64,000 bases of DNA, from the NCBI GenBank assembly GCA_963662265.2, contig CAXXHA010000024.1, positions 1 through 64,000 of the forward strand. The letters are read 5' to 3'. The DNA comes from Spirochaetia bacterium. GTDB lineage: Bacteria > Spirochaetota > Spirochaetia > CADAEX01. This document shows, piece by piece, positions 19,222 through 52,759 of the stretch (position 1 is the stretch's first letter; the number at the start of each line of letters is the position of its first letter). Position numbers and translations under genes: made by a program. The notes beneath the pieces were generated by a model. It made no database searches and was not told the DNA's origin. It saw only the letters and a list, made by a program, of their open reading frames with translations.

Positions 19222-20100
19222 TTATATTAGTCCCATATCTTTCATAACTTTTTTACAGACTGCTTTTAAATCGTCTGACATTTCACAAAGTGGAAGTCTG
19301 TAAGTTTCCTTGATCATTCCCTTGAGCGCCATCATGTATTTTATAGGCACAGGATTTGTATCACAGAATTCTGCTCTGAAGAAGGGAAGGAGAGAGTAGT
19401 GGAGCTTTCTTGCTTTTTCCATTTCGCCTGCAAGAGCAGCCTGGCACATTTCTTCCATTTTTCCCGGAATAAGGTTACTTGCAACAGATACAATACCGCT
19501 TCCGCCCATTGCAATAAGAGCAGTTCCAAGATTGTCATCGCCTGAAAGTACTTCAAAGCTGTCAGGTTTTGCCGCAATGAGATCCATCATCTGATTGAGA
19601 TCTCCGCTTGCCTCTTTAACAGCAACAATATTATCATGCTGGGCAAGTCTGAGCATTGTGGAGTTTTCTATGTTTTTACCGCTTCTTCCCGGAATGTTGT
19701 ATACAAGAACAGGCATCTCAACACTGTCTGCAATAGTCATGAAATGTCTGTAAAAACCTTCCTGGCTTGGTTTATTATAATAAGGTGCTACCTGAAGAGT
19801 AACATCAGCACCTGCATCTTTTGCAAGTTTAGTCAGTCTTATTGCTTCTTCAGTACAGTTTGAACCTGTACCTGCAATTACAGGAACTTTTCCATTAACC
19901 TGTTTTACAACTTTTTCTATAACCATAATATGGTCATCATGATTAAGCGTAGGACTTTCCCCTGTTGTTCCCATTGGTGCAAGACCTGAAATTCCCTCGT
20001 TGATCTGAAAATCTACGAGATCCTTCATTGCTCCGTCATCATAAGATCCGTCTTCATTAAACGGCGTGACAAGTGCTGTAAATACACCTTTTAATTTCAT
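19222..20100 (-). CDS. dapA: 4-hydroxy-tetrahydrodipicolinate synthase, copy 1
   Basis: TALVTPF, GTTGES, PYYNKP, YNIPGR, catalytic VKEA, SGDD and NPVPIK. Confidence 0.93.
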   Translation of the reverse strand: MKLKGVFTALVTPFNEDGSYDDGAMKDLVDFQINEGISGLAPMGTTGESPTLNHDDHIMVIEKVVKQVNGKVPVIAGTGSNCTEEAIRLTKLAKDAGADVTLQVAPYYNKPSQEGFYRHFMTIADSVEMPVLVYNIPGRSGKNIENSTMLRLAQHDNIVAVKEASGDLNQMMDLIAAKPDSFEVLSGDDNLGTALIAMGGSGIVSVASNLIPGKMEEMCQAALAGEMEKARKLHYSLLPFFRAEFCDTNPVPIKYMMALKGMIKETYRLPLCEMSDDLKAVCKKVMKDMGLI

Positions 20101-20290: not shown

Positions 20291-21016
20291 TTATTTATTA
20301 TAAATATGCCAGTATTTGTTTACATCTTCTTTGAGAATATCAATATGCCGTATCAGAGCAGCTTCCGCACTTGCTGAATCATGGTTAGCAAGGGCTGTGA
20401 AAATAGCCAGGTGAGAATCGTTATATGGTTTCCCAACTTTATCTCTGAGTTTTTCAAATAATTCAGACTGCTGACCCATCTTTGAAAGTATCATATATAA
20501 AGATAAAAGTGCTTCATTCCCGGATGCTTTTGCTATTAAAAGATGAAAATCAATATCATCATTAGCGATGCTTAATCCTTTTTCTCTGTCAGAAATCTGT
20601 TTCTTTACAATTTTTTCAAGTTTTTTTAATTCTTTATCTGTGATTTTGTCAGCTGCCAGCGCTACAGTTGCTCTTTCAATTGCTTTTCTAGCTTCAAGAA
20701 CCTGAAGGTAATTATTCAGTGTATCACTGACAACCAGCTCATTCAGAGCATTGTGATAGTGATTTAGTTCAGTCTGATTTGCGGCAGATTTAAGAGCGTT
20801 TAGTCCCTTATCAGTAATTATTCTACCACGGACATTTTCTTTTTTAAGATAACCAGCCTTTTCCAGCTGTTTTAGTACCCTGCCTATTGTAGCAGTACTT
20901 ACTTCAATTCCCTGTTCGGTTATTTCATCAACAATATTCCATGATCCCATTGGTTGATCACTTTCTGCAAGTATTTTTAAAACTATTAAATACCACCTGT
21001 CAGCCATAATGTCCAA
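20291..21016 (-). CDS. Transcriptional regulator: HrcA/NrpR-like winged HTH plus FCD (FadR C-terminal) ligand domain
   Basis: N-term VLKILAESDQPMGS...VSTATIGRVLKQLEKAGYL; C-term LEARKAIE, DIDFHLLIAKASGN, HLAIFTAL and RHI (FCD His motifs). TTG start with AGGAG RBS; divergent from dapA copy 2. Confidence 0.8.
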   Translation of the reverse strand: MDIMADRWYLIVLKILAESDQPMGSWNIVDEITEQGIEVSTATIGRVLKQLEKAGYLKKENVRGRIITDKGLNALKSAANQTELNHYHNALNELVVSDTLNNYLQVLEARKAIERATVALAADKITDKELKKLEKIVKKQISDREKGLSIANDDIDFHLLIAKASGNEALLSLYMILSKMGQQSELFEKLRDKVGKPYNDSHLAIFTALANHDSASAEAALIRHIDILKEDVNKYWHIYNK

Positions 21017-21138
21017 GGTTTGTCTCCTAAGTTTAAATTAATTTTGGTTGAAAAAAGTTTAGATTAATAATTGAAAAAAGACAACTATTATTCCATAAAA
21101 ACACGATTGAAAATAAAACTCTTAATATAACAAATTTA

Positions 21139-21191
21139 TTGACATTAATAAATAAGCAAGATAATATATAGCTACTCATATGATGAGTAGC
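21139..21191 (+). promoter_or_regulatory. Sigma70-type promoter plus operator 1 (GCTACTCA-tatga-TGAGTAGC, 21171-21191)
   Basis: TTGACA 21139-21144, 17 bp, TAATAT; perfect 8-bp inverted repeat just downstream of -10 and just before the GGAGG RBS of dapA2. Confidence 0.8.
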
Positions 21192-21203
21192 AAAGGAGGG
21201 AAT

Positions 21204-22070
21204 ATGTTATCTGGAGTTATTACAGCTTTAATCACCCCTTTTGATGAAAAAGGGAATGTTGATTTTCAGTCTTTTGAAAAAATACTTGGAATGCAAATTG
21301 ATGCGGGAATAAATGGATTACTTCCGCTCGGAACAACTGCTGAAAGTCCAGTACTTAGCGAAAAAGAAAAAGAGAAAATCATAGAAATGGTTTTAAATAA
21401 AGTTGATGGGAAAGTTCCTGTTATAGCGGGTAGCGGATCAAATTCAACTGAAGCTGCAATAAATGCAACTTTGAAAATGAAAAAAATGGGTGTTGATTCA
21501 AGCTTACAGGTTGCACCGTATTACAATAAGCCGAGTCAGGAAGGATTATATCGTCACTTTTCAGAAATAGTTGAAAAATGTGATTTCCCTATTTGGCTTT
21601 ACAATGTACCTGGAAGATCCGGAGTGGAAATTACAACGGAAACTATTTTGCGGCTTTCAAAAGATCCCAGAATTCTTGGAGTAAAGGATGCAACAGGAAA
21701 TGTAACAACAGCTATGGAAGTTTTAAAGGGTGAAACCGGGGATTTTTCTGTTTTTTCAGGTGATGATGCGTTGGCTTTACCAATGATGTCTCTGGGTGCC
21801 AAAGGTGTTATATCTGTAGTTAGTAATCTGATTCCTGAAAAGATGGTTAAATTTACCAGTCTCATACTTGATCGTAAATATGAAGAAGCAAGAAAAATGC
21901 ATTTTGAACTTCTGCCTCTGTTTAAAGCTGCTTTTATTGAAACAAATCCAGTACCAATTAAAGCTGCTATGGCAAGCAAAGGATGGATGTCAGAAAAGTA
22001 CAGGTCTCCGTTATGTAATATGCTTGAAGTAAACAGGAAGAAACTGATGGAAGTTGTTGAAGCTTTCTGA
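21204..22070 (+). CDS. dapA: 4-hydroxy-tetrahydrodipicolinate synthase, copy 2
   Basis: TALITPF, GTTAES, PYYNKP, YNVPGR, catalytic VKDA, SGDD and ETNPVPIK. Start placed at ATG 21204 behind AGGAGG. Confidence 0.9.
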   Translation: MLSGVITALITPFDEKGNVDFQSFEKILGMQIDAGINGLLPLGTTAESPVLSEKEKEKIIEMVLNKVDGKVPVIAGSGSNSTEAAINATLKMKKMGVDSSLQVAPYYNKPSQEGLYRHFSEIVEKCDFPIWLYNVPGRSGVEITTETILRLSKDPRILGVKDATGNVTTAMEVLKGETGDFSVFSGDDALALPMMSLGAKGVISVVSNLIPEKMVKFTSLILDRKYEEARKMHFELLPLFKAAFIETNPVPIKAAMASKGWMSEKYRSPLCNMLEVNRKKLMEVVEAF

Positions 22071-22144
22071 AGTCTGAAAGTGTAATCAGACACAGATGTT
22101 TGGAAAATCTTGATTATCCAGTCTTGTATATGATTGTAACAAAC

Positions 22145-22173
22145 TTGTCAAATTTAATGTAATACTGTAGTAT
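22145..22173 (+). promoter_or_regulatory. Possible internal sigma70 promoter for dapB, without operator
   Basis: TTGTCA-17 bp-TAGTAT immediately upstream of the GAGGAG RBS. Confidence 0.45.
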
Positions 22174-22190
22174 TTTGCCGAGGAGTTATC

Positions 22191-23411
22191 ATGACAAGAA
22201 TAATCATTAATGGATGCTTTGGCCGGATGGGCAGGGTTTTAATTGCAGCTTTGAAGGACCAGGATGACTTGGTTCTGGCCGCTGGAATAGATTTGTCAAT
22301 TCCAACCAAGCATTCTGATTTTCCAGTATTTACATCACTTGAATCCTGTACTGTTGAAGCTGATGTGGTGGTGGATTTTTCAAATCCGAAATCACTATCA
22401 GAGCTATTGCCAGTTGCAGCTTCAAGGAAAATTGCAGTAGTTATTGCGACTACCGGACTGATGCAGAAACATCATGATCTGATAAAGAAATACAGTCAGG
22501 ATATTCCGGTATTTCATTCTGCCAATATGTCTGTAGGTATTAATCTGGTCAAGGATCTGATAAAGAAAGCAGCTTTGATTTTAGGAAATTCCTACGATAT
22601 TGAGATTGTTGAAATGCATCACAGGATGAAAAAGGATTCACCAAGCGGAACAGCTCTTTTGTTGTACAATGCGCTAAATGAAGTTCTAGAGCCAAAAATG
22701 AAGAGTGTATGCGGGAGGGAATCTGATAATCAGTTAAGAACTTCGGAGGAAATTGGAATACATGCAATTCGTGGTGGAACTGTAATTGGGGATCATGATG
22801 TGATTTTTGCAGGACCGGATGAGCTTGTTAAGCTGAGCCATAAAGCTTTCTCGCGGCAGATTTTTGCGATGGGTGCGCTGAAAGCTGCAAAGTATATTGC
22901 AGGTAATAAACCCGGTATCTATACAATGGATAAAATGTTCAGTGAATCAAATGTTGTGACTGATCTTTATACTGTTGATAATGAGGTTCTTATTACTATT
23001 GCAAACCTCCCGGCGAAGATGTCTGTTGTAACAGGTCTTTTAGGTGTAATATCCCAGGAAGAAGTCAATATTGATATGATAAGCCAGACTAATCAGGCTG
23101 GTGAATTATTAACTGTTTCTTTTTCTTTATTCAAATCTGACCTCTTGAAAACAGAAAAAGTTATAAAAGACCTTATAAAGCAGTATCCTGAAGTATATTA
23201 TATTTGTGATCCTGAAGTTTCCAAGATTACAGTAGAAGGTCCTGGTATGGAGCAACAGTCTGGTGTTGCATTTAAAGTGTTTTCATCTCTGGAAAAGGAA
23301 AACATTCAGGTGAAAGCAGTTTCTACATCTGAAACTAAAATATCGTCAATTATTGATATTAATGATAAGGAAAAAGCTGTATCTATTCTGAAAGAAATAT
23401 TTATTATTTAA
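22191..23411 (+). CDS. dapB: 4-hydroxy-tetrahydrodipicolinate reductase fused to two aspartokinase-beta-like ACT domains
   Basis: GCFGRMG, VDFS, ATTG, SANMSVG, EMHHRMKKDSPSGTA and IRGG..GDH over about 250 aa. Then about 150 aa with VNIDMISQ and KITVEGPGMEQQSGVAFKVF...VSTSETKIS, resembling AK ACT1/ACT2. Confidence 0.9.
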   Translation: MTRIIINGCFGRMGRVLIAALKDQDDLVLAAGIDLSIPTKHSDFPVFTSLESCTVEADVVVDFSNPKSLSELLPVAASRKIAVVIATTGLMQKHHDLIKKYSQDIPVFHSANMSVGINLVKDLIKKAALILGNSYDIEIVEMHHRMKKDSPSGTALLLYNALNEVLEPKMKSVCGRESDNQLRTSEEIGIHAIRGGTVIGDHDVIFAGPDELVKLSHKAFSRQIFAMGALKAAKYIAGNKPGIYTMDKMFSESNVVTDLYTVDNEVLITIANLPAKMSVVTGLLGVISQEEVNIDMISQTNQAGELLTVSFSLFKSDLLKTEKVIKDLIKQYPEVYYICDPEVSKITVEGPGMEQQSGVAFKVFSSLEKENIQVKAVSTSETKISSIIDINDKEKAVSILKEIFII

Positions 23412-23444
23412 AACAGCATTTTTACATTGATTAATAAAAAATAA

Positions 23445-23493
23445 CAGGAATCGTGCAGGGGTAAATTATGATGTGATTTATGCACGATTCCTG
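23445..23493 (+). terminator. Long hairpin after dapB
   Basis: Perfect 13-bp arms CAGGAATCGTGCA / TGCACGATTCCTG with additional inner pairing; poor U tract. Confidence 0.55.
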
Positions 23494-23635
23494 AAATATT
23501 TATAAAATAAAAAATCTTCAAATCAGTTCAATATTTTTCTAAAATTCTAAAATAATTTAATCTGTTTTATCAGTATGGCCAAAATCAAGTCTCTTGTATT
23601 TTGTTGAGATTTAAGCGAAAAAAGTTTGGAAAAAC

Positions 23636-23703
23636 TTGACAAGGAATAAAATTGTGTTAATATTATATTGCTACTCACGAGATGAGTAGCAATATAATAT
23701 TAA
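23636..23703 (+). promoter_or_regulatory. Sigma70-type promoter plus operator 2 (core GCTACTCA-cgaga-TGAGTAGC in a 47-bp perfect palindrome, 23657-23703)
   Basis: TTGACA 23636-23641 and extended -10 TGnTAATAT; 21-bp arms TTAATATTATATTGCTACTCA / TGAGTAGCAATATAATATTAA. Confidence 0.85.
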
Positions 23704-23719
23704 AGGAGCATATTTAGAT

Positions 23720-24751
23720 ATGAACCAGCTAAATGTTGCAGTTGTTGGAGCTCTTGGAGCTGTCGGGCAGCAGATGATAAAAACTCTCGAGAAATCAACA
23801 CTGCCTGTAAAAAATTTTGTTCCAATGGATATATCAATTAATAAGGGAAAAGTTTGTAAATTCCGTGATAAAGAGTATGAAGTTGTAACTGCGGAAGAAG
23901 AAGCTTTTAAAGGTGTTGATATTGCACTGTTTTCTGCAGGTGGAGATGCAAGTAAGGTATTGGCACCTCTTGCTGTAAAACAGGGGACTGTTGTAGTAGA
24001 TAACTCCAGTCAGTGGAGGATGGATCCTGAAATACCACTTGTTGTGCCGGAGGTTAATCCTGAGGCTTTACGCACTCATAAAGGTATAATTGCAAATCCT
24101 AACTGTTCAACAATACAGATGCTTGTAGCGTGTAAACCTCTTCATGATAAATTCAGGATAAAAAGAATTGTTGTTTCTACATACCAGGCTGTATCAGGAA
24201 GCGGGCAGAAGGCTATTGAGGAGCTTAAAGAGCAGTCTGAAACATTTTTTACTGACAAACAGTCAGAGGCTAAAGTTTATCCGCATCCTATAGCTTTTAA
24301 TGCATTACCTCACATAGATGTATTTCTTGATAATGGTTATACAAAAGAAGAGATGAAGATGGTGAATGAGACACATAAGATTCTTGACCCGTCTATCATG
24401 GTTTCTCCTACAGCAGTGAGAATTCCTGTTTTCAGGAGTCATTCTGAATCTATTAATCTGGAATTTGAAAATGAATTTTATATGCAGGATCTAAAGAAAC
24501 ATCTTTCAGAGGCAAGAGGTGTCGTCCTTTGTGATTCTCCTGAAGATAATGTTTATCCACTTGCAAGAAAAGCGGAAGGAACCGGAGATGTTTTTGTTGG
24601 TCGAATCAGAAGAGATTCGACAGTAGTTTCAGGAGTAAATCTATGGGTTGTTTCAGATAATCTTCTTAAAGGAGCTGCATACAATGCTGTGCAGATCGCT
24701 GAAACATTGTATGCAATGGATTTGATTAAGCTGCCAGTAGCAGTAGGATAA
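23720..24751 (+). CDS. asd: Aspartate-semialdehyde dehydrogenase
   Basis: VVGALGAVG, DNSSQWRM, ANPNCST, STYQAVSGSG, RIPVFRSHSE and SDNLLKGAAYNAVQ. Confidence 0.95.
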   Translation: MNQLNVAVVGALGAVGQQMIKTLEKSTLPVKNFVPMDISINKGKVCKFRDKEYEVVTAEEEAFKGVDIALFSAGGDASKVLAPLAVKQGTVVVDNSSQWRMDPEIPLVVPEVNPEALRTHKGIIANPNCSTIQMLVACKPLHDKFRIKRIVVSTYQAVSGSGQKAIEELKEQSETFFTDKQSEAKVYPHPIAFNALPHIDVFLDNGYTKEEMKMVNETHKILDPSIMVSPTAVRIPVFRSHSESINLEFENEFYMQDLKKHLSEARGVVLCDSPEDNVYPLARKAEGTGDVFVGRIRRDSTVVSGVNLWVVSDNLLKGAAYNAVQIAETLYAMDLIKLPVAVG

Positions 24752-24755
24752 AGTA

Positions 24756-25799
24756 ATGAAACCAATTGCAGTTTTAAAGTTCGGAGGAACATCTGTTGCG
24801 AATCCGGAACTCAGGGAAAAGGTTTTAAGTCATGTCAAATCCTATATTGATAATGATTATTCTGTGGTGGTAGTTGTTTCTGCAATGGGGCGAAAAGGAT
24901 CGCCCTATGCAACTGATACATTGATTGATCTTCTTCCTGATGGTTTGGAAACCAGTATTGTAAAAGATTTTATATGTAACTGCGGTGAAAATATTTCTGC
25001 TGCAATTTTAGCGGCTGAAGCCTCCATGATGGGGATTGAGGCTGTGCCGTTAACCGGTGGGCAAGCGGGAATAATTACTGATGCCTGTTATACAAAGGCT
25101 AATATTATCCGTATTCAACCAGATATTGTTGTGAATCATCTTTCTAACGACCGGGTAGTAATAATATCAGGTTTCCAGGGACATACAATGCCTGAAGGGT
25201 ATGTTACAACTCTGGGAAGGGGAGGCAGTGATTTAAGTGCTATTTCTCTTTCTGCTGCACTCCACGCAGATGAGACTGTTATATATACAGATGTTCCCGG
25301 GATTGCTTTTGCAGATCCACGATTGGTGCCTGATGTTAAGTTTATTTCATCTATTCCTGTAAAGCAATTATACTGGCTTTCTCTCGGGGGGGCAAAGGTG
25401 ATGCATTCCCGGGCTGTAAAAACTGCAATGGAACGGATGGTATCTTTTTATGTACGGGCTACCGGATCAGATGAAGAGGGAACATTTGTTGATACAGGCC
25501 ATGATACAGCATTCCTTCCATTTGCCGGAATTGCTGCTGTTCCGATGGATAACGGTTTCTCCCAGGTAAGTTTAATCATGACTCCTGATTCTAAAAAAGA
25601 AACTGAAATGATTATGGAATACTGGGATGGAAAAGAAGAAAAACCGGAATTTGAATACCTTGCTGAAAAATGTTGTCTTAAAGCAGTGTTGAAGGAGGAA
25701 CTTTCCACTTGTTTTATTCAGGAAACATGTGGCATTATTTCCGGGAAAGCAAATCTGGATATTTTAAAAAAGGAAAGGGTCCATGACAGAATATTTTGA
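24756..25799 (+). CDS. dapG: Aspartate kinase, DapG/AK-I type, with truncated or degenerate regulatory region
   Basis: KFGGTSV, VVVVSAMGRKGSPYATDTL (DapG-like), TTLGRGGSD, YTDVPG..ADPR and GAKVMH; only about 100 atypical residues follow the kinase domain. Confidence 0.8.
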   Translation: MKPIAVLKFGGTSVANPELREKVLSHVKSYIDNDYSVVVVVSAMGRKGSPYATDTLIDLLPDGLETSIVKDFICNCGENISAAILAAEASMMGIEAVPLTGGQAGIITDACYTKANIIRIQPDIVVNHLSNDRVVIISGFQGHTMPEGYVTTLGRGGSDLSAISLSAALHADETVIYTDVPGIAFADPRLVPDVKFISSIPVKQLYWLSLGGAKVMHSRAVKTAMERMVSFYVRATGSDEEGTFVDTGHDTAFLPFAGIAAVPMDNGFSQVSLIMTPDSKKETEMIMEYWDGKEEKPEFEYLAEKCCLKAVLKEELSTCFIQETCGIISGKANLDILKKERVHDRIF

Positions 25800-26988
25800 T
25801 GTTACAATCATTGGCGGAGGAATTATCGGGTTATCAAGTGCCTATTACCTCAGTCAGCGAGGTAAAAAAGTACTGATTCTTGAAGCTGGTGGATTTGGTC
25901 ATGGCAGTTCAGGTTCCTGTGATGATATGATTCTGTTACAGTCCAAAAAGCCGGGAATAAATCTGAAGCTTGCATTTGAGAGTCTTGAACTTTACAGGCA
26001 GTTATTGAGTGATTGGGGAGAAGATGAACTTGAATTCCTTAATCTGGGGGGAATGATTCTTATACAGAATCAGCAGGAGCTTTCAATTATGGAAGATTTT
26101 GTTGATCAGCAGAAAAAAATAGGGCTTGATGTCAGTATTATTGATAAAAAAGAAATGAAAAAAAAGCAGCCATATGTGAGTGACAGGTATATTGCCTCGA
26201 CCTACAGCGAGATAGATTCACAGGTTAACCCGTTTTCTGTTATGCGGGGATTTCTCTCAAGGATAAAAAAAATGGGTGGTGAAATAAGGTTTTATTCACC
26301 TGTGAAATCCATAGAAAAACAAGGATCTGGTGGCTGGAATATTAAAACTGAAAAAGAAGAAAATTATTATTCTGATGTTGTTGTTAATGCTGCCGGTGCC
26401 TGGGCAGGGAAGATTGCTTCTATGGTTGGACAGGATGTTCCGATAACTCCAAAAAAGGGGCAGCTTGTAATTACTGAAAAGGTACCCTCTCTCGGGGAAA
26501 CTAATTTGTGGAGTGCAAGTTATATGGTTACCAAGTTAAGGCCTGATCTTGTTGAAAACAATTCATCAGATATGGGAATAGGACTTGGCTTTTCATTTAC
26601 CAGGACTACTGACGGGAATTACCTGATTGGAAGTACAAGGGAAAAGGTCGGGTTTGATAAGAGAAATACCTATGAAGCTATAAAGGCGATTATTAAGCAG
26701 GCAACAGGTATACTTCCGGTTCTTAACGAAGTCCATTTTATCAGAACTATTGCCGGTTTCAGACCTGCATCTGAAGATGGGAAGGTTATCCTTGGTGAGC
26801 ATGAATCTGTTCCCGGTTTTTATACAGCAGCCGGGCATGAAGGTGACGGAATAGCATTGGCCCCTGTAACTGGCAAAATCCTTTCAGAGATTGTTTCCGG
26901 AGATTCTGTTGATCCTGAATATCTTCAGTTGTCGCCTGAAAGATTTCTGTCCCGGACAGAAGACAAGGTTTTAAATGAAGTAAGGTGA
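25783..26988 (+). CDS. FAD-dependent D-amino-acid-oxidase-family subunit (PdhB/HcnC/OoxB-like)
   Basis: IIGGGIIG, VVNAAGAW, KKGQLV, AGFRP and GHEGDGIALAPVTG; overlaps dapG. Confidence 0.85.
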   Translation: MTEYFDVTIIGGGIIGLSSAYYLSQRGKKVLILEAGGFGHGSSGSCDDMILLQSKKPGINLKLAFESLELYRQLLSDWGEDELEFLNLGGMILIQNQQELSIMEDFVDQQKKIGLDVSIIDKKEMKKKQPYVSDRYIASTYSEIDSQVNPFSVMRGFLSRIKKMGGEIRFYSPVKSIEKQGSGGWNIKTEKEENYYSDVVVNAAGAWAGKIASMVGQDVPITPKKGQLVITEKVPSLGETNLWSASYMVTKLRPDLVENNSSDMGIGLGFSFTRTTDGNYLIGSTREKVGFDKRNTYEAIKAIIKQATGILPVLNEVHFIRTIAGFRPASEDGKVILGEHESVPGFYTAAGHEGDGIALAPVTGKILSEIVSGDSVDPEYLQLSPERFLSRTEDKVLNEVR

Positions 26989-26998
26989 GGTTGATAAG

Positions 26999-27274
26999 AT
27001 GACAAACAAGGATATATTTATATGCCGGTGTGAAGAAGTTACACTCTCTGAGATAGAACAGGCTATTGATGAGGGATTTATAACTGTTAATGATGTAAAA
27101 CGCCGAACCAGAGCAGGGATGGGGCTTTGTCAGGGAAGAACATGTGGGAAAAGAATTGCCCAGATTATTTCCAAAAAGACTGGAATACCACTTGATACTT
27201 TGCTTCCGGGAACTGCACGCTCTCCTGTGAGAACAGAAAAAATGGAAATATTTAAGGGAGAACAGGATGTTTAG
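26999..27274 (+). CDS. BFD-like [2Fe-2S] subunit
   Basis: ICRCEEV...KRRTRAGMGLCQGRTC...RSPVR, equivalent to the C-terminal domain of OoxA/HcnB-type subunits. Confidence 0.85.
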   Translation: MTNKDIFICRCEEVTLSEIEQAIDEGFITVNDVKRRTRAGMGLCQGRTCGKRIAQIISKKTGIPLDTLLPGTARSPVRTEKMEIFKGEQDV

Positions 27275-27602
27275 GATTAAGCATCACCCTATTCTGGGTG
27301 ATTTGGATGAGAATAAAGAGGAACTTATAACTATCCATGTTGACGGGAAACCGCTTTCCGCAAGGAAAGGGGAAATGATAGCTGCGGCATTACTGTCACA
27401 TGGTATCAGATCTTTCAGGAAAACTAATAAATATAAAAACCCCCGCGGTATATTTTGCGGAATAGGGCGATGCACAGATTGTGTTATGACTGTTAACGGG
27501 ATTCCCAATGTCAGAACTTGTGTAACTCCTGTAGAAGATGGAATGATAATCGAAACCCAGGAAGGTTCTGGAAAATGGGGAGGGGCTGATGGAAAGGTAT
27601 GA
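27267..27602 (+). CDS. [2Fe-2S] ferredoxin-like subunit (Fer2_4, HcnA-like)
   Basis: HPILG, GEMIAAAL and RGIFCGIGRCTDC...NVRTC. Confidence 0.85.
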   Translation: MFRIKHHPILGDLDENKEELITIHVDGKPLSARKGEMIAAALLSHGIRSFRKTNKYKNPRGIFCGIGRCTDCVMTVNGIPNVRTCVTPVEDGMIIETQEGSGKWGGADGKV

Positions 27603-28683
27603 AGTTATTGTTATTGGAGCAGGTCCTGCCGGTCTTTCAGCAGCCATAGAAGCTGCATCAGCAGGATGTAAAGTACTCCTTCTTGATGAAAATTCTAAAC
27701 CTGGCGGGCAGCTGTTTAAGCAGATACATAAATTTTTCGGTTCAAAAGAACACCGTGCAGGTATAAGAGGTATAAATATCGGAAAACAGCTTCTCGATGA
27801 AGCAGAAAGACTTGAGATTGAAGTCTGGCTTGATTCAGAAGTCTGTGGAATTTTTGACCAGCGTAAAATCTGGGTGGTAAAAAACAAGAAGAAAAGCATT
27901 ATGCTGGAGGCCGACAGGATAATTCTGGCTACAGGTGCTACTGAAAATGCTGTAAGTTTTCCCGGATGGCATCTGCCGGGGGTTATGGGAGCTGGCGCGG
28001 CCCAGACAATGATTAATATCAACAGAGTGCTTCCGGGTACAAAAGTTCTGATGATAGGTTCAGGAAATGTAGGTATTATTGTTTCATATCAGCTTTTACA
28101 GGCAGGTGCAGATGTTGTCGCTGTTGTTGAAGGTGCACCCAGGTTGGGTGGATATGGTGTTCATACAGCTAAAATCAGAAGAGCTGGAGTTCCTTTTTAT
28201 GTAAGCCATACAGTAGCAGCTGCGGAGGGTAATGGAAAGGTTGAAAAAGCCAAAATAGTCCAGATTGATTCCAGCTGGAAGCCTGTACCTGGTACAGAGA
28301 AGGAACTGGAAGTTGATACTATCTGTATAGCAGCTGGTCTTTCACCTCTTACAGAACTGGCCTATCTTGCCGGTTGCGAGTTTACCTATACACCTGTGCT
28401 TGGTGGTCATGTGCCCTGGCATAATTCCAGAATGCAGACAAGTCTTGAACACCTCTATATTGCCGGTGATATTTCCGGTGTAGAGGAAGCAAGTACTGCC
28501 ATGGAAGAGGGGAGGATGGCCGGCCTGCAGGCTGCTGCTTCTCTTGGACACATGAGCGACGGGGAAAAGCAGGAAGAGGAAAAGCAGATACAGGCAAGAC
28601 TTGATGATCTGCGTTCAGGTTTTTTCGGAGAAAAAAGAATGAGTGCTAAAAATATGATTTTTGCAGCAGGGGGTGAACAGTAA
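27589..28683 (+). CDS. FAD/NAD(P)-dependent oxidoreductase subunit (PdhA/HcnB-like)
   Basis: VIGAGPAG, GGQLFKQIHKFFGS, LATGA, IGSGNVG and YIAGD motifs. Confidence 0.85.
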   Translation: MERYEVIVIGAGPAGLSAAIEAASAGCKVLLLDENSKPGGQLFKQIHKFFGSKEHRAGIRGINIGKQLLDEAERLEIEVWLDSEVCGIFDQRKIWVVKNKKKSIMLEADRIILATGATENAVSFPGWHLPGVMGAGAAQTMININRVLPGTKVLMIGSGNVGIIVSYQLLQAGADVVAVVEGAPRLGGYGVHTAKIRRAGVPFYVSHTVAAAEGNGKVEKAKIVQIDSSWKPVPGTEKELEVDTICIAAGLSPLTELAYLAGCEFTYTPVLGGHVPWHNSRMQTSLEHLYIAGDISGVEEASTAMEEGRMAGLQAAASLGHMSDGEKQEEEKQIQARLDDLRSGFFGEKRMSAKNMIFAAGGEQ

Positions 28684-29216
28684 TGGCTCATTGTACTAAA
28701 TGTTGTAATGGAGTGAAAATCGATGGAGTGCCATCTGTTGAAGAATTAAAAGCATCTCCCGGGTATCCTTCTTCAGTTGTAAGGGAAAAGCCCCTGGCAT
28801 TTATTGAATGTGTTGAAGAAATTCCCTGTAATCCCTGCGCTTCAGCATGTCCTCAAAATGCGATTACTCTTGAAAAGGGTCTTACATCTCTGCCCAGAAT
28901 AAATCCTGATTTATGTACAGGGTGTGGGATTTGCATAGCCGCATGTCCCGGTCTTGCAATTTATGTAAAAGCAAGGGAATTCGGTCCAGGTCTTTCATCA
29001 ATCATGTTTCCTTTTGAATATTATCCTTTACCGGAAGTTGGAGAGGAAGTGGGTCTGGTTAATAGGTTTGGGGAGAAAATATGCAGCGGTTTTGTTCTTT
29101 CTGTAAAGCTGTCACAAAAATATGATCGTACAGCAATTATTAAGGTTTCTTTTCCGCAAAACTATTTTGAGGATGTTGTTTCCATGAAAAAACTCCCTGT
29201 AAAATATAGTGAATAA
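28683..29216 (+). CDS. 2x[4Fe-4S] ferredoxin subunit with C-terminal beta domain
   Basis: ECVEEIPCNPCASACP and CTGCGICIAACPG; FPFEYYPLPEVG tail; TAATG coupling to the upstream gene. Confidence 0.85.
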   Translation: MAHCTKCCNGVKIDGVPSVEELKASPGYPSSVVREKPLAFIECVEEIPCNPCASACPQNAITLEKGLTSLPRINPDLCTGCGICIAACPGLAIYVKAREFGPGLSSIMFPFEYYPLPEVGEEVGLVNRFGEKICSGFVLSVKLSQKYDRTAIIKVSFPQNYFEDVVSMKKLPVKYSE

Positions 29217-29290
29217 TATTTTATATACTGATATTTAAAATACATTTCACTGATTTATATTAAATAATGCAATAATTAAAAAATAAAAAA

Positions 29291-29346
29291 TTGACAAGTG
29301 GAAAATCTGTGTTATCATTTTTACAGCTGCTCATAATGTGAGGAGC
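29291..29346 (+). promoter_or_regulatory. Sigma70-type promoter plus operator 3 (GCTGCTCA-taatg-TGAGGAGC, 29326-29346)
   Basis: TTGACA 29291-29296 and extended -10 TGnTATCAT; operator has 14/16 matches, the same N5 spacer and a similar position just after -10. Confidence 0.75.
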
Positions 29347-29390
29347 AGTTAAGATGTGTTATAACACAGACAAAATGTATGGAGGTTTAA

Positions 29391-30434
29391 ATGAAAAGTC
29401 TTAGAAAAGGTATTGTTATTTTTATGATACTTGCGGGTGTCTCTTCTCTTTTTGCCGGGGGAAATAAAGAAGCTGCAGTTTCATCCGGAGAAGAAACACT
29501 AAAACCGGCAACTTATACCTGGACAGCTGGAAGTATGGGCGGTGGCTGGTATACACAGGCTGGCGGAATGGCTGCATTATTAAAAGAAAATGCACCTGAA
29601 ATTACATTAAAGGTTATTCCTGGTGGTGGAGTTTCAAATCCGCCGTTGGTTCATACTGGTCAGAACGAAATTGGCTGGGGTGTCGGCTGGGTTGATAAAG
29701 CAGCTTACAGTGGTATTGCACCGCTTTTCGACAGAAAAGTTGACAATATCAGAGGTCTTGCAGGTAATTTTTCTGTTGATTTTTATCATATTGTTGCTGC
29801 AAAAGATACTGGTATTAGCACACTTGATGAATTTGTGGAAAAAGTTAAAAACGGGGAAAAAGTGAATGTTGCAGCTCCCAGAGCGGGAACTTCTGACAGG
29901 GCTCTGACTTCTCTTCTTTTTGATCATCTTGGTATATCTTATGAAAAAATGGAAGCAAACGGCGGAAGAATTATCTATGCTACATATGGCGACATGGTAA
30001 ACCTTTATAAAGACAGGCATGTAGACTATGCAATTGCAACTCTTGGACTTCCTGGAGCCGCAGTAACAGAAATGGCTATTTCCCGGGAAACAACTATTCT
30101 TGAAGCTTCAGATGATCTTGTTAAATATTCAAATGAAACTTACGGAACAGTAGCACTTGAATCTGGTTTAAGCGTTATTCCCGGTGGAACATATCCTGGA
30201 ATTGATGAAGACAAACAGGCGCTTGCGCATACTACTGAAATTGTTGTAAATGCTGATTTACCTGAAATCGTTGTTTATACATTTGTTAAGACATTGATGG
30301 AAAATCTTGAAAAAGTTCAGGACTTGAATCCTAGCTTTAAAAAATACTTTTCAAAAGAAAGTGCGCCAAACACTATGGTTCCTCTTCACCCAGGTGCAGA
30401 GAAGTACTATCGTGAAATCGGTGTTATAAAATAA
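29391..30434 (+). CDS. TAXI-family TRAP transporter solute-binding protein
   Basis: Spirochaete-type signal (SLFAGGNKE), AGSMGGGWY, PGGGVSN, IPGGTYPG and VPLHPGAEKYYREIG. Confidence 0.9.
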   Translation: MKSLRKGIVIFMILAGVSSLFAGGNKEAAVSSGEETLKPATYTWTAGSMGGGWYTQAGGMAALLKENAPEITLKVIPGGGVSNPPLVHTGQNEIGWGVGWVDKAAYSGIAPLFDRKVDNIRGLAGNFSVDFYHIVAAKDTGISTLDEFVEKVKNGEKVNVAAPRAGTSDRALTSLLFDHLGISYEKMEANGGRIIYATYGDMVNLYKDRHVDYAIATLGLPGAAVTEMAISRETTILEASDDLVKYSNETYGTVALESGLSVIPGGTYPGIDEDKQALAHTTEIVVNADLPEIVVYTFVKTLMENLEKVQDLNPSFKKYFSKESAPNTMVPLHPGAEKYYREIGVIK

Positions 30435-30444
30435 AAAATTATAA

Positions 30445-30471
30445 GGGTATGTAATACTGTATTACATACCC
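30445..30471 (+). other. Intercistronic stem-loop between TAXI SBP and permease
   Basis: Perfect 12-bp stem GGGTATGTAATA-ctg-TATTACATACCC; typical position for an element that raises SBP mRNA over permease mRNA (inference). Confidence 0.65.
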
Positions 30472-30496
30472 GAATTTTATTATTGGAGTTTATTAT

Positions 30497-32401
30497 ATGC
30501 GTGAATTGAAAGGATATTTGTCCAAAATTGTCGCAATCTGTTTGGGGGGAGTTGCTCTTTTTCATTTTTACACTGCAGTTTTTGGGGTATTTACTCCCAG
30601 GGTTCAGCGTGGTGTACATTTGATGATACTTTTACCAATGGCATTTTTACTTTTTCCTGCAACAAAGAAATCTCCTAAAGACAGACCAACTGTACTTGAT
30701 TGTATTTTAGCTGTCCTTTCGGTGATTCCGCCTCTTTTTGTAATGTATGCTGATGGCCGGCTGAATCTCAGGTTTGAACTTTTTGATCCGGTATTACCAA
30801 TAGAGGTAGTTTTAGGGCTTTTAAATATATTGCTTATTCTTGAAGCTGTGAGAAGGGTCGTAGTCCCTGCAATGGCTATTCTTATGGCTGCGTTTTTTGC
30901 TTATATTTATGTAGCACCGTTTCTTCCAGGTATTTTTTATGTGAAACCGATGCCTCTGGCCCGGATTGTTGAGATTAATTATCTTTTTACAAGTGAAGGT
31001 ATTTACGGATCTATCGTAGGGGTAACAGCAACTTTTGTTGCAATATTTGTTATTTTCGGTGCTTTCCTGCAGAACACAAATACAGGTGAATATTTTACAA
31101 ATCTGGCCTGTAAGCTTGCAGGAAAAGGCCCCGGCGGACCGGCAAAAATTGCGGTTATTTCAAGCGGTTTGTTTGGATCAATAAGCGGTGTAGCAGCTGC
31201 TAATGTATATGCAACAGGAATTTTTACAATTCCTCTCATGAAAAAACTGGGTTACAAGCCGAAATTTGCAGGTGCTGTCGAAGCTGCTGCCTCAACAGGT
31301 GGTCTTATAATGCCTCCTATAATGGGTGCGGGTGCTTTTGTAATGTCGGAAATTACCGGAGTACCATATTATAAGATCATCATTGCTGCACTTCTTGGAG
31401 CTGTTTTTTATTATGTAAGTCTGATTGTAAGGGTTCATTTATATGCACAGAGATATGACCTTGATAGTGTAACTGACGAAGAGCAGATCACCTGGAAGGC
31501 GATTCTCAAGGATTCATATCAGCTTATCCCGCTTGTGCTTCTGGTTATATTTCTGGTTAAGGGATTTTCTCCGTTCATGGCTGCAGTAGGTGCAATTGCT
31601 GCTACTTTTGCATTAAGTTTTGTAAAAAAAGAAACCATGATGACCCCGAAAAAACTCTGGGACACTTTTGTTCTTTCCGGACAGAATCTTATCATGCTTG
31701 GTGTAACATGTGCCGGTGCAGGTATGATAATAAGTATTGTAACATTTACAGGTCTTGCATTGGGTGTTGCTACAGTCATAACATCATGGTCAGGAGGATT
31801 TCTGCTTCCTGCTCTAATGCTGGTTACATTTACTTCAATGCTGATGGGAATGGGAATGCCGTGTACTCCTGCATATATAATTGCAGTTACAATAGGCGGT
31901 CCTGCAATGCTTGCAATGGGAGTTGATGTACTTCCAGCACATCTCTTTGTGTTTTATTATGCTATTCTTGCAGAAATTACACCACCTGTATGTATTGCAT
32001 CTTATTGCGGTGCAAACATAGCTCAATCAAAACCCATGGAAACCGGATTTGAATCTCTTAAACTGGCCCTTGTCGGATTTATAATACCTTATATATTCAT
32101 ATATAACCCTGCTATGCTTCTCCAGGGTACTTTTATGGAGATTGCTTCATTGTGTTTTATAATGATTTACATAATCGGTTTTATAGCAGCCGGACTTCAG
32201 GGATTTTATATCAGAAAACTGAATTTACTTTTCAGAACAGGTTCAATAGTAATAGCTGGTCTTTTAGTTTTACTTGTTTGTTCAAGTGTTATGGGTAATA
32301 AAACAATTCAAGTGGCAGTTTCAGTATTTGGTTTGCTGCATTTGATTTTTAATGTGTACAAAAAAACCAGAACAAAAGTTTCCAGCGCAATTGCTGGTTA
32401 A
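30497..32401 (+). CDS. TAXI-TRAP fused permease (4TM/12TM, DctQM-like)
   Basis: GGPAKIAVISS, ANVYATGIFTIPLMK, EAAASTGG.IMPPIMGAGAF, GMGMPCTPAY and ITPPV. Confidence 0.92.
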   Translation: MRELKGYLSKIVAICLGGVALFHFYTAVFGVFTPRVQRGVHLMILLPMAFLLFPATKKSPKDRPTVLDCILAVLSVIPPLFVMYADGRLNLRFELFDPVLPIEVVLGLLNILLILEAVRRVVVPAMAILMAAFFAYIYVAPFLPGIFYVKPMPLARIVEINYLFTSEGIYGSIVGVTATFVAIFVIFGAFLQNTNTGEYFTNLACKLAGKGPGGPAKIAVISSGLFGSISGVAAANVYATGIFTIPLMKKLGYKPKFAGAVEAAASTGGLIMPPIMGAGAFVMSEITGVPYYKIIIAALLGAVFYYVSLIVRVHLYAQRYDLDSVTDEEQITWKAILKDSYQLIPLVLLVIFLVKGFSPFMAAVGAIAATFALSFVKKETMMTPKKLWDTFVLSGQNLIMLGVTCAGAGMIISIVTFTGLALGVATVITSWSGGFLLPALMLVTFTSMLMGMGMPCTPAYIIAVTIGGPAMLAMGVDVLPAHLFVFYYAILAEITPPVCIASYCGANIAQSKPMETGFESLKLALVGFIIPYIFIYNPAMLLQGTFMEIASLCFIMIYIIGFIAAGLQGFYIRKLNLLFRTGSIVIAGLLVLLVCSSVMGNKTIQVAVSVFGLLHLIFNVYKKTRTKVSSAIAG

Positions 32402-32543
32402 TATAAATACTGATTATTTCTCTTTGTTTTTTAATTATTGCAGGGAGAATTTTTTTAAAATAGAATCTCTTGAAATAATGATAAAAAAGTCACCTCTTTT
32501 ACAGATTATTTCAAGGGATTATTTATATACATATGGGGGGTAT

Positions 32544-33089
32544 ATGGCAAAAGTCATTCTATTAAGTGGAAGTCCTAATGAAAACGGAAATACAGTACAT
32601 ATCTTCAGAGAAATGGCAAGGAAAATTGAAAATAATGGAGTTGATGCTGAGGTGATATCTCTTGCAGGAATGAACATCAAAGATGTTATGAATGTTAAGG
32701 GCGGATGTGATGACGGATTTGATAAAGTGATAGAAAAAATTATACCAGCAGAAGGGTTGATTGTTGGAGGACCGGTTTACTGGGGTACGGTACGTGCTGA
32801 ATTGATGACTGCTTTGCATAGAATTGCTATGGCTTCCATGAAGAATGGAAACTTTCTATCTCGCAAAATTGGTGGACCGGTTGCAGTTGCCAGGAGGGGA
32901 GGGCTTACTTCTTCAATTCAGGAAATGATGATGTTTTTTCTCTATAATGATATGATTGTTCCCGGTTCTACATACTGGAATATTGTATTTGGCAAGGCTC
33001 CCGGTTCTGCTTTAGAGGATGAAGAAGGTATGAAAACAGTTAACCATTTTGCAGAAAATGTTGCCTGGTTAATCAATAAATTAAAATAA
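32544..33089 (+). CDS. Flavodoxin-fold NAD(P)H-dependent FMN reductase / Isf-like flavoprotein
   Basis: LSGSPNENGNT, GPVYWG, VAVARRGG and PGSTYWN...DEEG. Start at ATG 32544 behind GGGGG; the ORF-track 5' extension is implausible. Confidence 0.8.
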   Translation: MAKVILLSGSPNENGNTVHIFREMARKIENNGVDAEVISLAGMNIKDVMNVKGGCDDGFDKVIEKIIPAEGLIVGGPVYWGTVRAELMTALHRIAMASMKNGNFLSRKIGGPVAVARRGGLTSSIQEMMMFFLYNDMIVPGSTYWNIVFGKAPGSALEDEEGMKTVNHFAENVAWLINKLK

Positions 33090-41506: not shown

Positions 41507-43054
<1,548 letters not shown>

Positions 43055-43245
43055 AGAAAGGTAATTATCCAAATGTACTGGATACAGTAGTTCATTTATT
43101 TGAATTACAAAATTGGGTCTTTAATTAGATCCGGATCCGCTTCAGGAAACTTTTTTATATATAATGAGGAGAAATCCTCGGTACGGGTTAATACCCGGGT
43201 ATGGGCTGGTTGTAACCTTTAGTTACTGCTTGTTCATGCAATCAT

Positions 43246-43319
43246 GGGGGCATAGCTCAGTTGGCTAGAGCACCGGCTTTGCAAGCCGGGGGTCCGGGGT
43301 TCGAGTCCCCGTGCCTCCA
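43246..43319 (+). tRNA. tRNA-Ala(TGC) in ITS of operon 1
   Basis: Acceptor GGGGGCA/TGCCTCC with G3:U70; anticodon arm CCGGC-TTTGCAA-GCCGG. Confidence 0.95.
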
Positions 43320-43543
43320 AGAAAATAGTGGAAAACGAAAGTTAACTGCTTTTTTTTAAAGTAGAGAATGGAGATATTTGATATTTTTAGTTTTTACTTT
43401 TATATGAATCTGAAAGATTTTCTTTAGATTCATGTTTATAGCTGTGAAAACAGCAATGTTCTTTAATAGATAAACATTAACACATATAAGGATTTAGAAA
43501 TAAATCTGGTGTTTTTGATAAGAGAAGGGTTAAAAAATAATAT

Positions 43544-46530
<2,987 letters not shown>

Positions 46531-46795
46531 ATATTATTATTTAACTCATTCTCGAATCTTGATAAGCAATGGATGTGCTTGTACATACATTGCCGAAGCG
46601 AGGAAGGGTACTGCCGATAGGCAGCGACCTATTCTCAATTTTCTGTAAGTGTGGTGCTTTTAATACTTGTAGAGATAAAAACATAAAAAGCTTTTTGCTT
46701 TAGTTTTTAACTGAAAAAGGAGTTTTTAGGGTAATTTGATAAAGTTACTTGCAAACAATCCTGATAAATGTTAAAAACCTGAGTGAAAAAAATTA

Positions 46796-46905
<110 letters not shown>

Positions 46906-47394: not shown

Positions 47395-48942
<1,548 letters not shown>

Positions 48943-49183: not shown

Positions 49184-49257
<74 letters not shown>

Positions 49258-49396: not shown

Positions 49397-52383
<2,987 letters not shown>

Positions 52384-52649: not shown

Positions 52650-52759
<110 letters not shown>

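Follow-up and report, generated by a model that had tools for sequence, protein, structure and literature searches.

A gene cluster in the genome of a Spirochaetia bacterium joins an importer, a presumed repressor and a five-subunit flavin/iron-sulfur dehydrogenase to the lysine-pathway enzymes DapA, aspartate-semialdehyde dehydrogenase (Asd) and aspartate kinase (AK), and is most likely a catabolic module of strict anaerobes. It lies on contig CAXXHA010000024.1 of assembly GCA_963662265.2, within the 64,000-nucleotide stretch analyzed here (the window). In the reading we prefer, to which we assign a probability of about 0.4, a compound of the diaminopimelate (DAP) type would be imported, the complex would supply an oxidized cyclic intermediate, and ATP would be gained by running DapA, Asd, and AK in reverse. 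A first-pass annotation of the window had proposed a related scheme in which flux also ran backwards through DapB. All of the genes it named are present at the locus, while a second DapA, an FMN reductase-family gene, a pair of ACT domains on DapB, and the probable start of dapA near 21203 were missing from its list.

The proposed route would begin with uptake of a C7 amino-dicarboxylate of the DAP type by a TAXI-TRAP transporter or an SSF symporter. Successive oxidations of alpha-C-N bonds, of the kind catalyzed by the flavoenzyme NikD, would take this substrate to the level of dihydro- or 4-hydroxy-tetrahydrodipicolinate (HTPA), with NAD(P)+ as the electron acceptor and with or without ferredoxin. 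The complex would thereby stand in for the DapB step, because DapB should not be reversible with NAD(P)+. DapA, acting as a retro-aldolase, would cleave the product to pyruvate and aspartate semialdehyde (ASA). Asd would convert ASA to aspartyl phosphate, from which the ACT-less kinase would form ATP and aspartate. In this spirochaete a presumed housekeeping operon, dapA-dapB(ACT), shares the operator of the cluster, so part of the intermediate could be drawn to lysine. We advance more tentatively the fuller version of this scheme, in which strict anaerobes would ferment peptidoglycan-derived DAP through a reversed upper lysine pathway, two alpha-C-N dehydrogenations by a possibly electron-confurcating complex replacing deamination and DapB.

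The linkage is not peculiar to the window. A scan of one genome per species with an alignment of homologues of the DAO-family flavoprotein subunit, combined with tblastn searches using the window proteins, yielded 80 loci. These were divided into 34 close loci, with DAO subunits at least 46% identical, and 46 distant loci (37-44% identical). DapA-family genes were found in 26 of the 34 close loci but in 7 of the 46 distant ones, Asd in 21 versus 0, AK in 16 versus 0, and the FCD regulator in 27 versus 2. TAXI or TRAP genes occurred in 11 close and 14 distant loci (9-12 of the close loci in other counts), and an SSF symporter was the importer in 16 of the close loci. Five of the eight close loci without DapA end at a contig edge beside the DAO gene, and six of the seven distant loci with a DapA-family gene hold simple DAO + DHDPS pairs in Tepidanaerobacter-type genomes. 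The linkage is thus specific to one DAO clade and recurs across phyla; the first-pass annotation had named recurrence in other genomes as a test of its scheme. Carriers include Clostridia (Geosporobacter, Marinisporobacter, Sedimentibacter, and Muriventricola), Spirochaetota (Sphaerochaeta, Pleomorphochaeta, and Treponemataceae), 'Ca. Vecturithrix', and Synergistaceae; most are represented by incomplete metagenome-assembled genomes (MAGs), and no aerobic carrier was found among them. In the Tepidanaerobacter-type genomes (L065, L066, L069, L076, L077, L095) the distant DAO is directly paired with the DHDPS-family gene and has no Fe-S subunits; this pair may be of the hydroxyproline type.

Gene order differs by lineage. 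Clostridia-type loci place asd-AK divergent from DAO-SSF symporter-FCD-BFD-dapA-Fer2_4-PNOR-Fer4, where PNOR is the pyridine-nucleotide oxidoreductase (Pyr_redox_2) subunit. Treponemataceae-type loci read TAXI-TRAP-(racemase-like)-DAO-FCD-BFD-dapA-Fer2_4-PNOR-Fer4-asd-AK. Most loci of both types have dapA interleaved between the BFD and Fer2_4 genes. In the Sphaerochaeta-type layout, that of the window, the complex genes are not interrupted by dapA, and a dapA-dapB(ACT) pair stands beside the cluster. Neighboring genes from asd through Fer4 overlap or lie no more than 10 nt apart in the window, in line with the translational coupling proposed earlier. Clustering of all open reading frames (ORFs) revealed no other widely shared gene.

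These arrangements bear on the possibility that the imported substrate is an unrelated amine (proline, hydroxyproline, an opine, an N-alkyl-lysine, or D-/L-aspartate) whose oxidation is merely co-regulated with aspartate-family genes. Complexes of the sister clades are stand-alone units with importers, an arrangement that we also count in favor of the preferred reading, and the variant clusters described below, with a racemase-like gene, the dehydrogenase complex, a divergent DHDPS-like gene, and an aldehyde dehydrogenase, mirror the hydroxyproline pathway in their make-up. Among solved structures the TAXI binding protein comes closest to 1us4 (102 bits), the 'putative GluR0 ligand binding core' of T. 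thermophilus, which is presumably a Glu/Gln binder. We nevertheless consider an unrelated amine improbable, given the interleaved dapA, the confinement of Asd and AK to the close clade (21 of 34 versus 0 of 46 loci), and the canonical character of the in-cluster DapAs. Between this clade and the sister clade, identity is only 25% for the SSF symporters and 44% for the TAXI proteins.

Sequence comparisons place the DapA and Asd of the cluster squarely within their families. In-cluster DapAs scored 329-372 bits against TIGR00674 (cut-off 206) and kept the motifs GTTGE, PYY, YNVPGRT, and KEAS, which we take to mark the Schiff-base lysine, the catalytic Tyr/Thr triad, and the arginine that binds ASA. 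In-cluster Asd proteins scored 447-459 bits against asd_B. Together these scores and motifs predict that the metabolites handled are aspartyl phosphate, ASA, pyruvate, and HTPA, not look-alikes. Read from 21180, the window dapA lacks a pattern match for GTTGE only; the second DapA of the window carries GTTGE, PYY, YNIPGRS, and VKEAS. The window AK scored 210 bits against TIGR00657 (cut-off 208.7) and has no ACT match, so that the C-terminal ACT pair of the aspartate kinase definition is missing; the aspartokinase-type ACT pair is located on the neighboring DapB.

The first-pass annotation had assigned the complex to the proline, hydroxyproline, and opine dehydrogenase family, and comparison with solved structures agrees. 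The DAO subunit is closest to the beta subunit of P. horikoshii PDH1 (1y56_B, 130.6 bits), and the alpha-like subunit matches 2gag_A and 1y56_A. The two alpha-subunit domains, PF07992 and PF13510, lie on adjacent, overlapping genes that both match segments of the SoxA model TIGR01372, and the Pyr_redox_2 subunit resembles the electron-input modules of GltD and SoxA. The complex is therefore of the PDH1/sarcosine-oxidase/opine-oxidase kind, whose members oxidize proline, sarcosine, or an opine. Like PDH1 of Pyrococcus and Thermococcus (alpha-beta-gamma-delta) and heterotetrameric sarcosine oxidase, it combines a DAO beta subunit with an alpha-like Pyr_redox_2 subunit and small Fe-S subunits; unlike them, it has its alpha function split into Fer2_4 and Pyr_redox_2. 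Its DAO subunit is distant from that of PDH1 (130 bits) and has invariant residues of its own (e.g. D48, N241, W243, and Y280), which also differ from those of the sister clades. These clade-specific residues comprise one invariant acidic residue (D48) and no extra basic residue. A further difference is the tie to DapA, Asd, and AK, of which we know no description for PDH1. No other flavoprotein is conserved in the cluster core. Geosporobacter subterraneus and G. ferrireducens (L046, L054) have a second DAO paralogue, 47-48% identical, with no partner gene within 10 kb.

DapB, which the earlier scheme had made part of the cluster, fell outside the conserved core. It was present in 5 of the 34 close loci at a threshold of at least 35% identity, in 9 of the 34 by clustering, and in 1 of the 46 distant loci. 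The window DapB has both DapB_N and DapB_C and scores above the equivalog cut-off, its ACT pair being an addition to the family definition. All 120 of the relatives listed carry the same fusion (43-94% identity), and every one with a named source is spirochaetal; the fusion also occurs in the deltaproteobacterial loci L090, L120, and L124. The best named relatives of both the DAO subunit and DapB-ACT belong to Spirochaetales, Treponemataceae, and Sphaerochaeta. DapB-ACT is thus the ordinary spirochaete DapB and no specialty of this locus. It may act as a beta-subunit-like partner of AK, or its ACT pair may be an allosteric switch on DapB.

Energetics also separate DapB from the proposed route. 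All values given here are our own estimates from textbook formation energies and redox potentials. Reduction of HTPA by NAD(P)H to tetrahydrodipicolinate (THDP) can be likened to a 3-hydroxyacyl-to-acyl reduction, with E0' of about -30 to -80 mV. By analogy with enoyl-CoA/acyl-CoA couples, reversal of DapB with NAD(P)+ would cost about +45 to +57 kJ/mol and would leave picomolar HTPA. Such a step looks thermodynamically impossible, and a reverse route is therefore plausible only if the flavoprotein replaces it. From HTPA onward, cleavage followed by Asd and AK would be roughly feasible, because oxidation of the aldehyde can pay for one ATP.

These estimates bear most directly on the scheme as first proposed, in which the complex oxidizes the D-center of meso-DAP to THDP and flux then passes in reverse through NAD(P)-linked DapB and on through DapA, Asd, and AK. 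DapB-ACT does share the operator in the window, the three variant loci (L090, L120, and L124) hold it together with the regulator, and oxidation of an amino acid center is ordinary chemistry for DAO enzymes. The cost of the DapB step, the presence of DapB in only 5-9 of the 34 loci, and the commonness of the fusion among spirochaetes count against this literal scheme. We consider it very improbable, and reverse flux through DapB was accordingly dropped from the route we prefer.

Precedent for a flavoprotein that could replace DapB comes from nikkomycin biosynthesis. NikD is a DAO/MSOX-family enzyme that carries out the four-electron oxidation of piperideine-2-carboxylate, a tetrahydropyridine-2-carboxylate, to picolinate (PMC4021061). 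Members of this family can therefore dehydrogenate cyclic imines through their enamine form, a precedent for imines of the THDP/HTPA type. Unlike the complex described here, which is a multi-subunit Fe-S dehydrogenase of anaerobes, NikD is a monomeric, O2-using oxidase, and the similarity is at the level of the family only.

The direction of flux is addressed by a variant of the cluster found in three loci of the Desulfobacterota type. A deltaproteobacterial MAG (L090) encodes a more distant, four-subunit version of the complex in one co-directional array comprising a PRK07475 racemase-like gene, SDR, a GntR/FCD regulator, DapB-ACT, TAXI, TRAP, DapA, DAO, Fer2_4, PNOR/BFD, aspartase, and aldehyde dehydrogenase. 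Its DapA is a true DapA (372 bits) and its aspartate ammonia-lyase is bona fide (707 bits, cut-off 681). In metagenome contigs L120 and L124 the order is TAXI-TRAP-DapA-complex-aldehyde dehydrogenase-(divergent DHDPS-like)-racemase-like, and the genes for the regulator and DapB-ACT diverge from this array. A non-phosphorylating aldehyde dehydrogenase in place of Asd and AK, together with aspartase, would make sense only if ASA is produced and oxidized, with DapA cleaving HTPA. In L090 the two enzymes are predicted to convert ASA to aspartate and aspartate to fumarate. Accessory genes of the 34 close loci, a PRK07475 racemase-like gene (5 loci), Amidohydro_3 (5 loci), and an adjoining genuine Ddh (3 loci), likewise look like catabolic partners. 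The two PRK07475 racemase-like genes of the source genome have no cluster homologues nearby.

The overall plan of these clusters resembles hydroxyproline catabolism in bacteria, which employs the D-hydroxyproline dehydrogenase LhpBEF, the DHDPS-family Pyr4H2C deaminase LhpC, and an aldehyde dehydrogenase. Both combine an importer with the same kind of amine-dehydrogenase complex, an enzyme of the DHDPS family, and oxidation of a semialdehyde; the regulator of the hydroxyproline pathway is of the GntR/FCD type, and the regulator here likewise has an FCD domain. Here, however, the DHDPS-family member is a canonical DapA that keeps the motif of the ASA-binding arginine, and a true Asd is followed by a kinase, a phosphorylating route able to yield ATP. 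No proline-racemase-type epimerase turned up at the window locus, although no search was aimed at proline racemase.

Several observations weigh against the catabolic reading. The natural end point of NikD-type chemistry would be aromatization, here to dipicolinate. Conversion of THDP to HTPA formally needs a C4-C5 desaturation, whereas the bonds introduced by DAO-family enzymes are C=N bonds; the proposal thus depends on undemonstrated tautomerization and hydration steps. The cluster Asd is the only asd_B match in four genomes (G009, an isolate, and G013, G014, and G015), and the cluster DapA is the only copy in G013-G015 and G019 (three genomes show both); these genes must therefore also run forwards for biosynthesis there. 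In Pleomorphochaeta (L028, 18452-20940) the regulator heads FCD-dapB-dapA-dapL-lysA. The sharing of the operator by the only DapB of the source genome fits a regulon for lysine or DAP supply, and this DapB would form a futile cycle with a THDP-oxidizing enzyme. Among the variant loci, aspartase is found in only one of three, and L120 (13785-14624) and L124 (14912-15571) hold a second DHDPS-like gene that has none of the four DapA motifs, such that the aldehyde formed there may be other than ASA. The catabolic direction suggested by the first-pass annotation is supported by the aldehyde dehydrogenase variant, once with aspartase, while the sole copies of Asd and DapA count against pure catabolism.

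Transcriptional signals define the regulon in the window. A palindrome, GCTACTCA-N5-TGAGTAGC, lies 3-8 nt downstream of three TTGACA/-10 promoters, each with a perfect TTGACA box. Two copies are perfect and the third has two mismatches, so the single palindrome at three promoters noted earlier could be seen again with this qualification. A scan of the 3.77 Mb genome allowing up to two mismatches returned only the three window sites and one further site at C7:24146, which was rejected as a regulon member because it is a terminator-like hairpin. The half-site GCTACTCAT recurs ahead of cluster genes in most related loci from Bacillota to Spirochaetota, with an operator spacing of 3 nt in the Sphaerochaeta type versus 6 nt in Clostridia. 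As a mark of the regulon the palindrome thus held up, its half-site being conserved across phyla and its occurrence in this genome being limited to the window promoters. The operator overlaps the dapA start at 21180; the true start is therefore probably the ATG near 21203, which is preceded by a GGAGGG ribosome-binding site. The palindrome is presumably bound by the FCD regulator, a putative repressor. Its FCD domain scored 76.7 bits, and its N-terminus matched models for HTH_12, FUR, and PadR, whereas the GntR-type winged helix, PF00392, gave no match at E<=0.001; the L090 regulator does have PF00392. No Rfam riboswitch was found in the window.

Whether the cluster belongs to lysine synthesis was examined in the source genome (3.77 Mb, 90.6% complete). 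The first-pass annotation had found no dapD, dapL, ddh, dapF, or lysA in the window, and indeed the contig gave no model match for DapL, Ddh, DapD, DapF, or LysA. The separate set of lysC, asd, dapL, and lysA that it had suggested looking for is only partly there. A second asd adjoins a full-length AK on contig C1, and two further full-length AKs are present; a LysA candidate falls slightly short of its cut-off (294 versus 298 bits), and neither DapL, DapD, nor Ddh was found above cut-off. For Ddh (TIGR01921) there were only two matches of about 21 bits, and the complex is unrelated to Ddh by sequence. A DapF-like gene next to an AK on C14 is full-length and divergent (58.7 bits, cut-off 114.65). 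DpaA (TIGR02853) gave no match at E<=1e-20. No second DapB was found in the genome: the only other match, a weak DapB_N hit on C29, was discarded as a 2,4-diaminopentanoate dehydrogenase (C29:216318-217382, 507 bits, cut-off 400). The latter enzyme points to ornithine fermentation in this organism. In the four Sphaerochaeta-type genomes (G000, the source genome, and G001, G002, and G019) there was no DapF match at E<=1e-15, and LysA-like genes had low scores (284-298 bits), that of G001 lying directly after dapL. In this lineage, lysine synthesis may finish by unusual steps.

Searching 21 cluster genomes (G000-G020) extended this comparison. An enzyme leading from THDP to DAP was found in 19 of the 21: DapL1 in seven, DapD_Ac in eight (one also with Ddh), and succinyl-type DapD in four. 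Only in G000 and G010 was no such enzyme found. TIGR03540 was above cut-off in 0 of 20 genomes, but this model is narrow and was above cut-off in only 1 of 14 control genomes. Lysine riboswitches (L-boxes) were found in 16 of the 21. They precede a canonical asd-dapA-dapB-dapD operon in G007 and G003 and, as confirmed by annotation, lysC-dapB-dapD (succinyl-type) in G014; DapB and DapD matches adjoin the riboswitch in G013, G015, and G016 too. In none of these six genomes with L-box-led lysine operons (G003, G007, and G013-G016) does a riboswitch precede the FCD cluster. In Clostridia and Treponemataceae the cluster therefore has a regulon of its own, and the idea that it is the whole lysine regulon there was rejected. 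In Treponemataceae (loci L113 in G014 and L115 in G016) the L-box operon is lysC-dapB-dapD, and G013-G015 have their only asd and dapA in the FCD cluster, such that the lysine pathway is split over two regulons. With DapL or DapD present in 19 of the 21 genomes, most carriers have no need of a Ddh substitute; this alternative of the first-pass annotation does not survive as a general explanation.

A narrower biosynthetic role is that of a second, riboswitch-independent supply of THDP or DAP. The complex would then be a flavin/Fe-S analogue of DapB, reducing HTPA, or of Ddh, aminating THDP reductively in the manner of glutamate synthase; uptake would serve salvage of DAP or aspartate, with the FCD protein acting as a repressor responsive to the end product. 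Genes for AK, Asd, DapA, the complex, and the only DapB of the genome belong to the window regulon, and no DapL, DapD, or Ddh was found in this genome. The 'Ca. Vecturithrix' MAG G010 (L047, 7.3 Mb) encodes DapA solely within the cluster and gives two matches each for Asd, DapF, and LysA, but none for DapB_C, DapL1, DapD, or Ddh; this gene set would place the complex functionally beside DapA and is also a pointer in favor of the preferred reading. The lysine operon of L028, the sole copies of Asd and DapA in several genomes, the Ddh beside three clusters that lack an in-cluster DapB, and the likeness of the Pyr_redox_2 subunit to GltD/SoxA electron-input modules also fit. However, canonical DapL, DapD_Ac, or DapD is present in 19 of the 21 cluster genomes, the source genome is only 90.6% complete, and DapL occurs in the genomes closest to it (G001, G002, and G019). 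The role of the complex would have to differ between lineages, and five subunits offer no evident advantage for a step that single NAD(P)H enzymes already perform. The aldehyde dehydrogenase/aspartase variant cannot run towards ASA, and no aerobic carriers were found. On balance we regard this role as rather unlikely.

Forward flux could also end in dipicolinate (DPA). AK, Asd, and DapA would make HTPA, and the complex would aromatize HTPA or THDP as an O2-independent analogue of SpoVF or EtfA, passing very low-potential electrons to NAD(P)+ or ferredoxin. The importer and FCD regulator would serve aspartate feeding or the re-uptake and sensing of DPA, for example as a chelator. The core of a DapG-type AK, Asd, DapA, and an oxidoreductase, with no DapB, has the four functions of B. 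subtilis dapG, asd, dapA, and dpaAB, in which three enzyme functions likewise precede an oxidoreductase (bioRxiv 10.1101/803486). The same paper reports that some Clostridia make DPA without dpaAB or etfA. The in-cluster DapA of Geosporobacter is closest among solved structures to Bacillus anthracis DHDPS (296 bits), and 5 of 12 Clostridia-type cluster genomes have no DpaA match. NikD provides a precedent for aromatization by a DAO-family enzyme, DipR for a DPA-sensing FCD-family regulator (see below); the sole copies of Asd and DapA are compatible with this role, which is strongly exergonic by our estimate.

Differences from the B. subtilis set are equally clear: the oxidoreductase is unrelated to SpoVFA/B, and an importer and a repressor are present. 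The cluster also occurs in Spirochaetota, Synergistaceae, and 'Vecturithrix', in none of which we know of spore formation. A DpaA-like gene is found as well in the other 7 of the 12 Clostridia-type genomes, such that no complementary pattern of cluster and SpoVFA emerged. Promoters are of the sigma-A type with a repressor operator. Uptake-type importers fit an end-product pathway poorly, and to our knowledge solute-binding-protein-dependent TRAP systems and SSF symporters are uptake systems only. The racemase-like, amidohydrolase, aldehyde dehydrogenase, and aspartase partners would have no role. We consider a DPA synthase unlikely, albeit the strongest of the alternatives.

The opposite direction, in which imported DPA is reduced by the complex to dihydrodipicolinate or HTPA and passed on to pyruvate and aspartate, or through DapB to lysine, is the least probable of the readings considered here. 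Read backwards, the core matches DPA biosynthesis exactly, and DapB is not required. Such a route would explain the acetate, propionate, ammonia, and CO2 reported for an anaerobic DPA-fermenting coculture (Seyfried & Schink 1990, as cited in PMC9826295), whose enzymatic pathway 'has not been elucidated' in the words of the citing paper. DipR of the dip cluster in the aerobe Alcaligenes faecalis shows that FCD regulators can sense DPA, and as a GntR/FadR-FCD repressor acting on a palindrome at several promoters of one pathway it parallels the putative repressor described here (PMC11472048). Its motif, unlike ours, is GTATAC, and the title and abstract of that report on aerobic DPA catabolism name none of the enzymes of our cluster. 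With a formation energy for DPA near -513 to -553 kJ/mol by group additivity, conversion of DPA and 3 H2O to pyruvate and aspartate would be endergonic by +54 to +94 kJ/mol. The DPA/dihydro-DPA couple would lie near -0.7 V, a more negative potential than that of ferredoxin, and the cluster encodes neither an ATP-driven module nor an obvious bifurcating one. These thermodynamic estimates of our own are the sole basis on which DPA catabolism was judged unlikely.

Coordinates of the genes and promoters are collected in Table 1. The importer consists of a TAXI binding protein and a fused DctQM permease, as is the composition of TAXI-TRAP transporters. A perfect 12-bp hairpin at 30445-30471 separates their genes and may determine how much binding protein is made relative to permease. 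The FMN_red gene follows the permease in the window alone and is not among the gene families that recur in related loci by clustering of all ORFs; its membership in the module is uncertain. Elsewhere in the window, there is a tandem pair of complete rRNA operons (16S-tRNA-23S-5S), spaced about 5.9 kb apart (41507-52759).

Table 1. Genes and promoters of the cluster and its immediate neighbors, in window coordinates
Feature	Position	Strand	Details
Second canonical DapA (4-hydroxy-tetrahydrodipicolinate synthase)	19222-20100	-	PF00701 317 bits; TIGR00674 361 bits (cut-off 206); downstream of regulator, same strand
Regulator, HTH_12-like winged-helix N-terminus and FCD C-terminus	20291-21016	-	PF07729 76.7 bits; PF08461 52.7 bits
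Promoter 1 (TTGACA-17-TAATAT)	21139-21191	+	perfect operator GCTACTCATATGATGAGTAGC at 21171-21191
dapA	21180-22070	+	TIGR00674 349 bits (cut-off 206)
dapB fused to two aspartokinase-type ACT domains	22191-23411	+	DapB_N, DapB_C, ACT_9, ACT_7; TIGR00036 213.7 bits (cut-off 122)
Promoter 2 (TTGACA-16-TAATAT)	23636-23690	+	operator GCTACTCACGAGATGAGTAGC at 23670-23690
asd, aspartate-semialdehyde dehydrogenase	23720-24751	+	TIGR01296 447 bits (cut-off 324); NF011456 462 bits; full-length
DapG-type aspartate kinase, catalytic domain only, 347 aa	24756-25799	+	PF00696; best match NF006068, positions 3-289 of 405
DAO-family flavoprotein, substrate-oxidizing (beta-like) subunit	25783-26988	+	PF01266 234 bits
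BFD-like [2Fe-2S] small subunit	26999-27274	+	PF04324, PF17806
Fer2_4 [2Fe-2S] subunit, SoxA N-terminus-like	27267-27602	+	PF13510 107 bits; TIGR01372 positions 15-100
Pyr_redox_2 subunit (alpha-like), probable NAD(P)(H) site	27589-28683	+	PF07992 130 bits; matches SoxA 2gag_A and PH1363 1y56_A
Ferredoxin-like 2x[4Fe-4S] subunit	28683-29216	+	Fer4_7, Fer4_10, Fer4
Promoter 3 (TTGACA-16-TATCAT)	29291-29346	+	degenerate operator GCTGCTCATAATGTGAGGAGC at 29326-29346
TAXI-family TRAP solute-binding protein	29391-30434	+	PF16868; TIGR02122 175 bits
Fused TRAP permease (DctQM-like), 634 aa	30497-32401	+	PF06808 261 bits
NADPH-dependent FMN reductase family gene (FMN_red), after permease	32352-33089	+	PF03358

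Literature searches, in part limited to the top-listed titles and abstracts, returned no description of this cluster. DAP is a major component of bacterial necromass, and we know of no defined anaerobic route for its catabolism. The cluster is a concrete, cross-phylum candidate at the metabolic node of DAP and dipicolinate, and its conserved pair of operator and regulator offers a handle for ligand screening. If the catabolic reading holds, true biosynthetic DapA, Asd, and AK would be reused in reverse for a gain of ATP, and the widespread multi-subunit 'dye-linked' amino-acid dehydrogenase family would acquire a physiological role. Fermentation of DAP by this route, if true, would be a new pathway of substrate-level phosphorylation and, decarboxylation aside, the first route to be defined for DAP catabolism.

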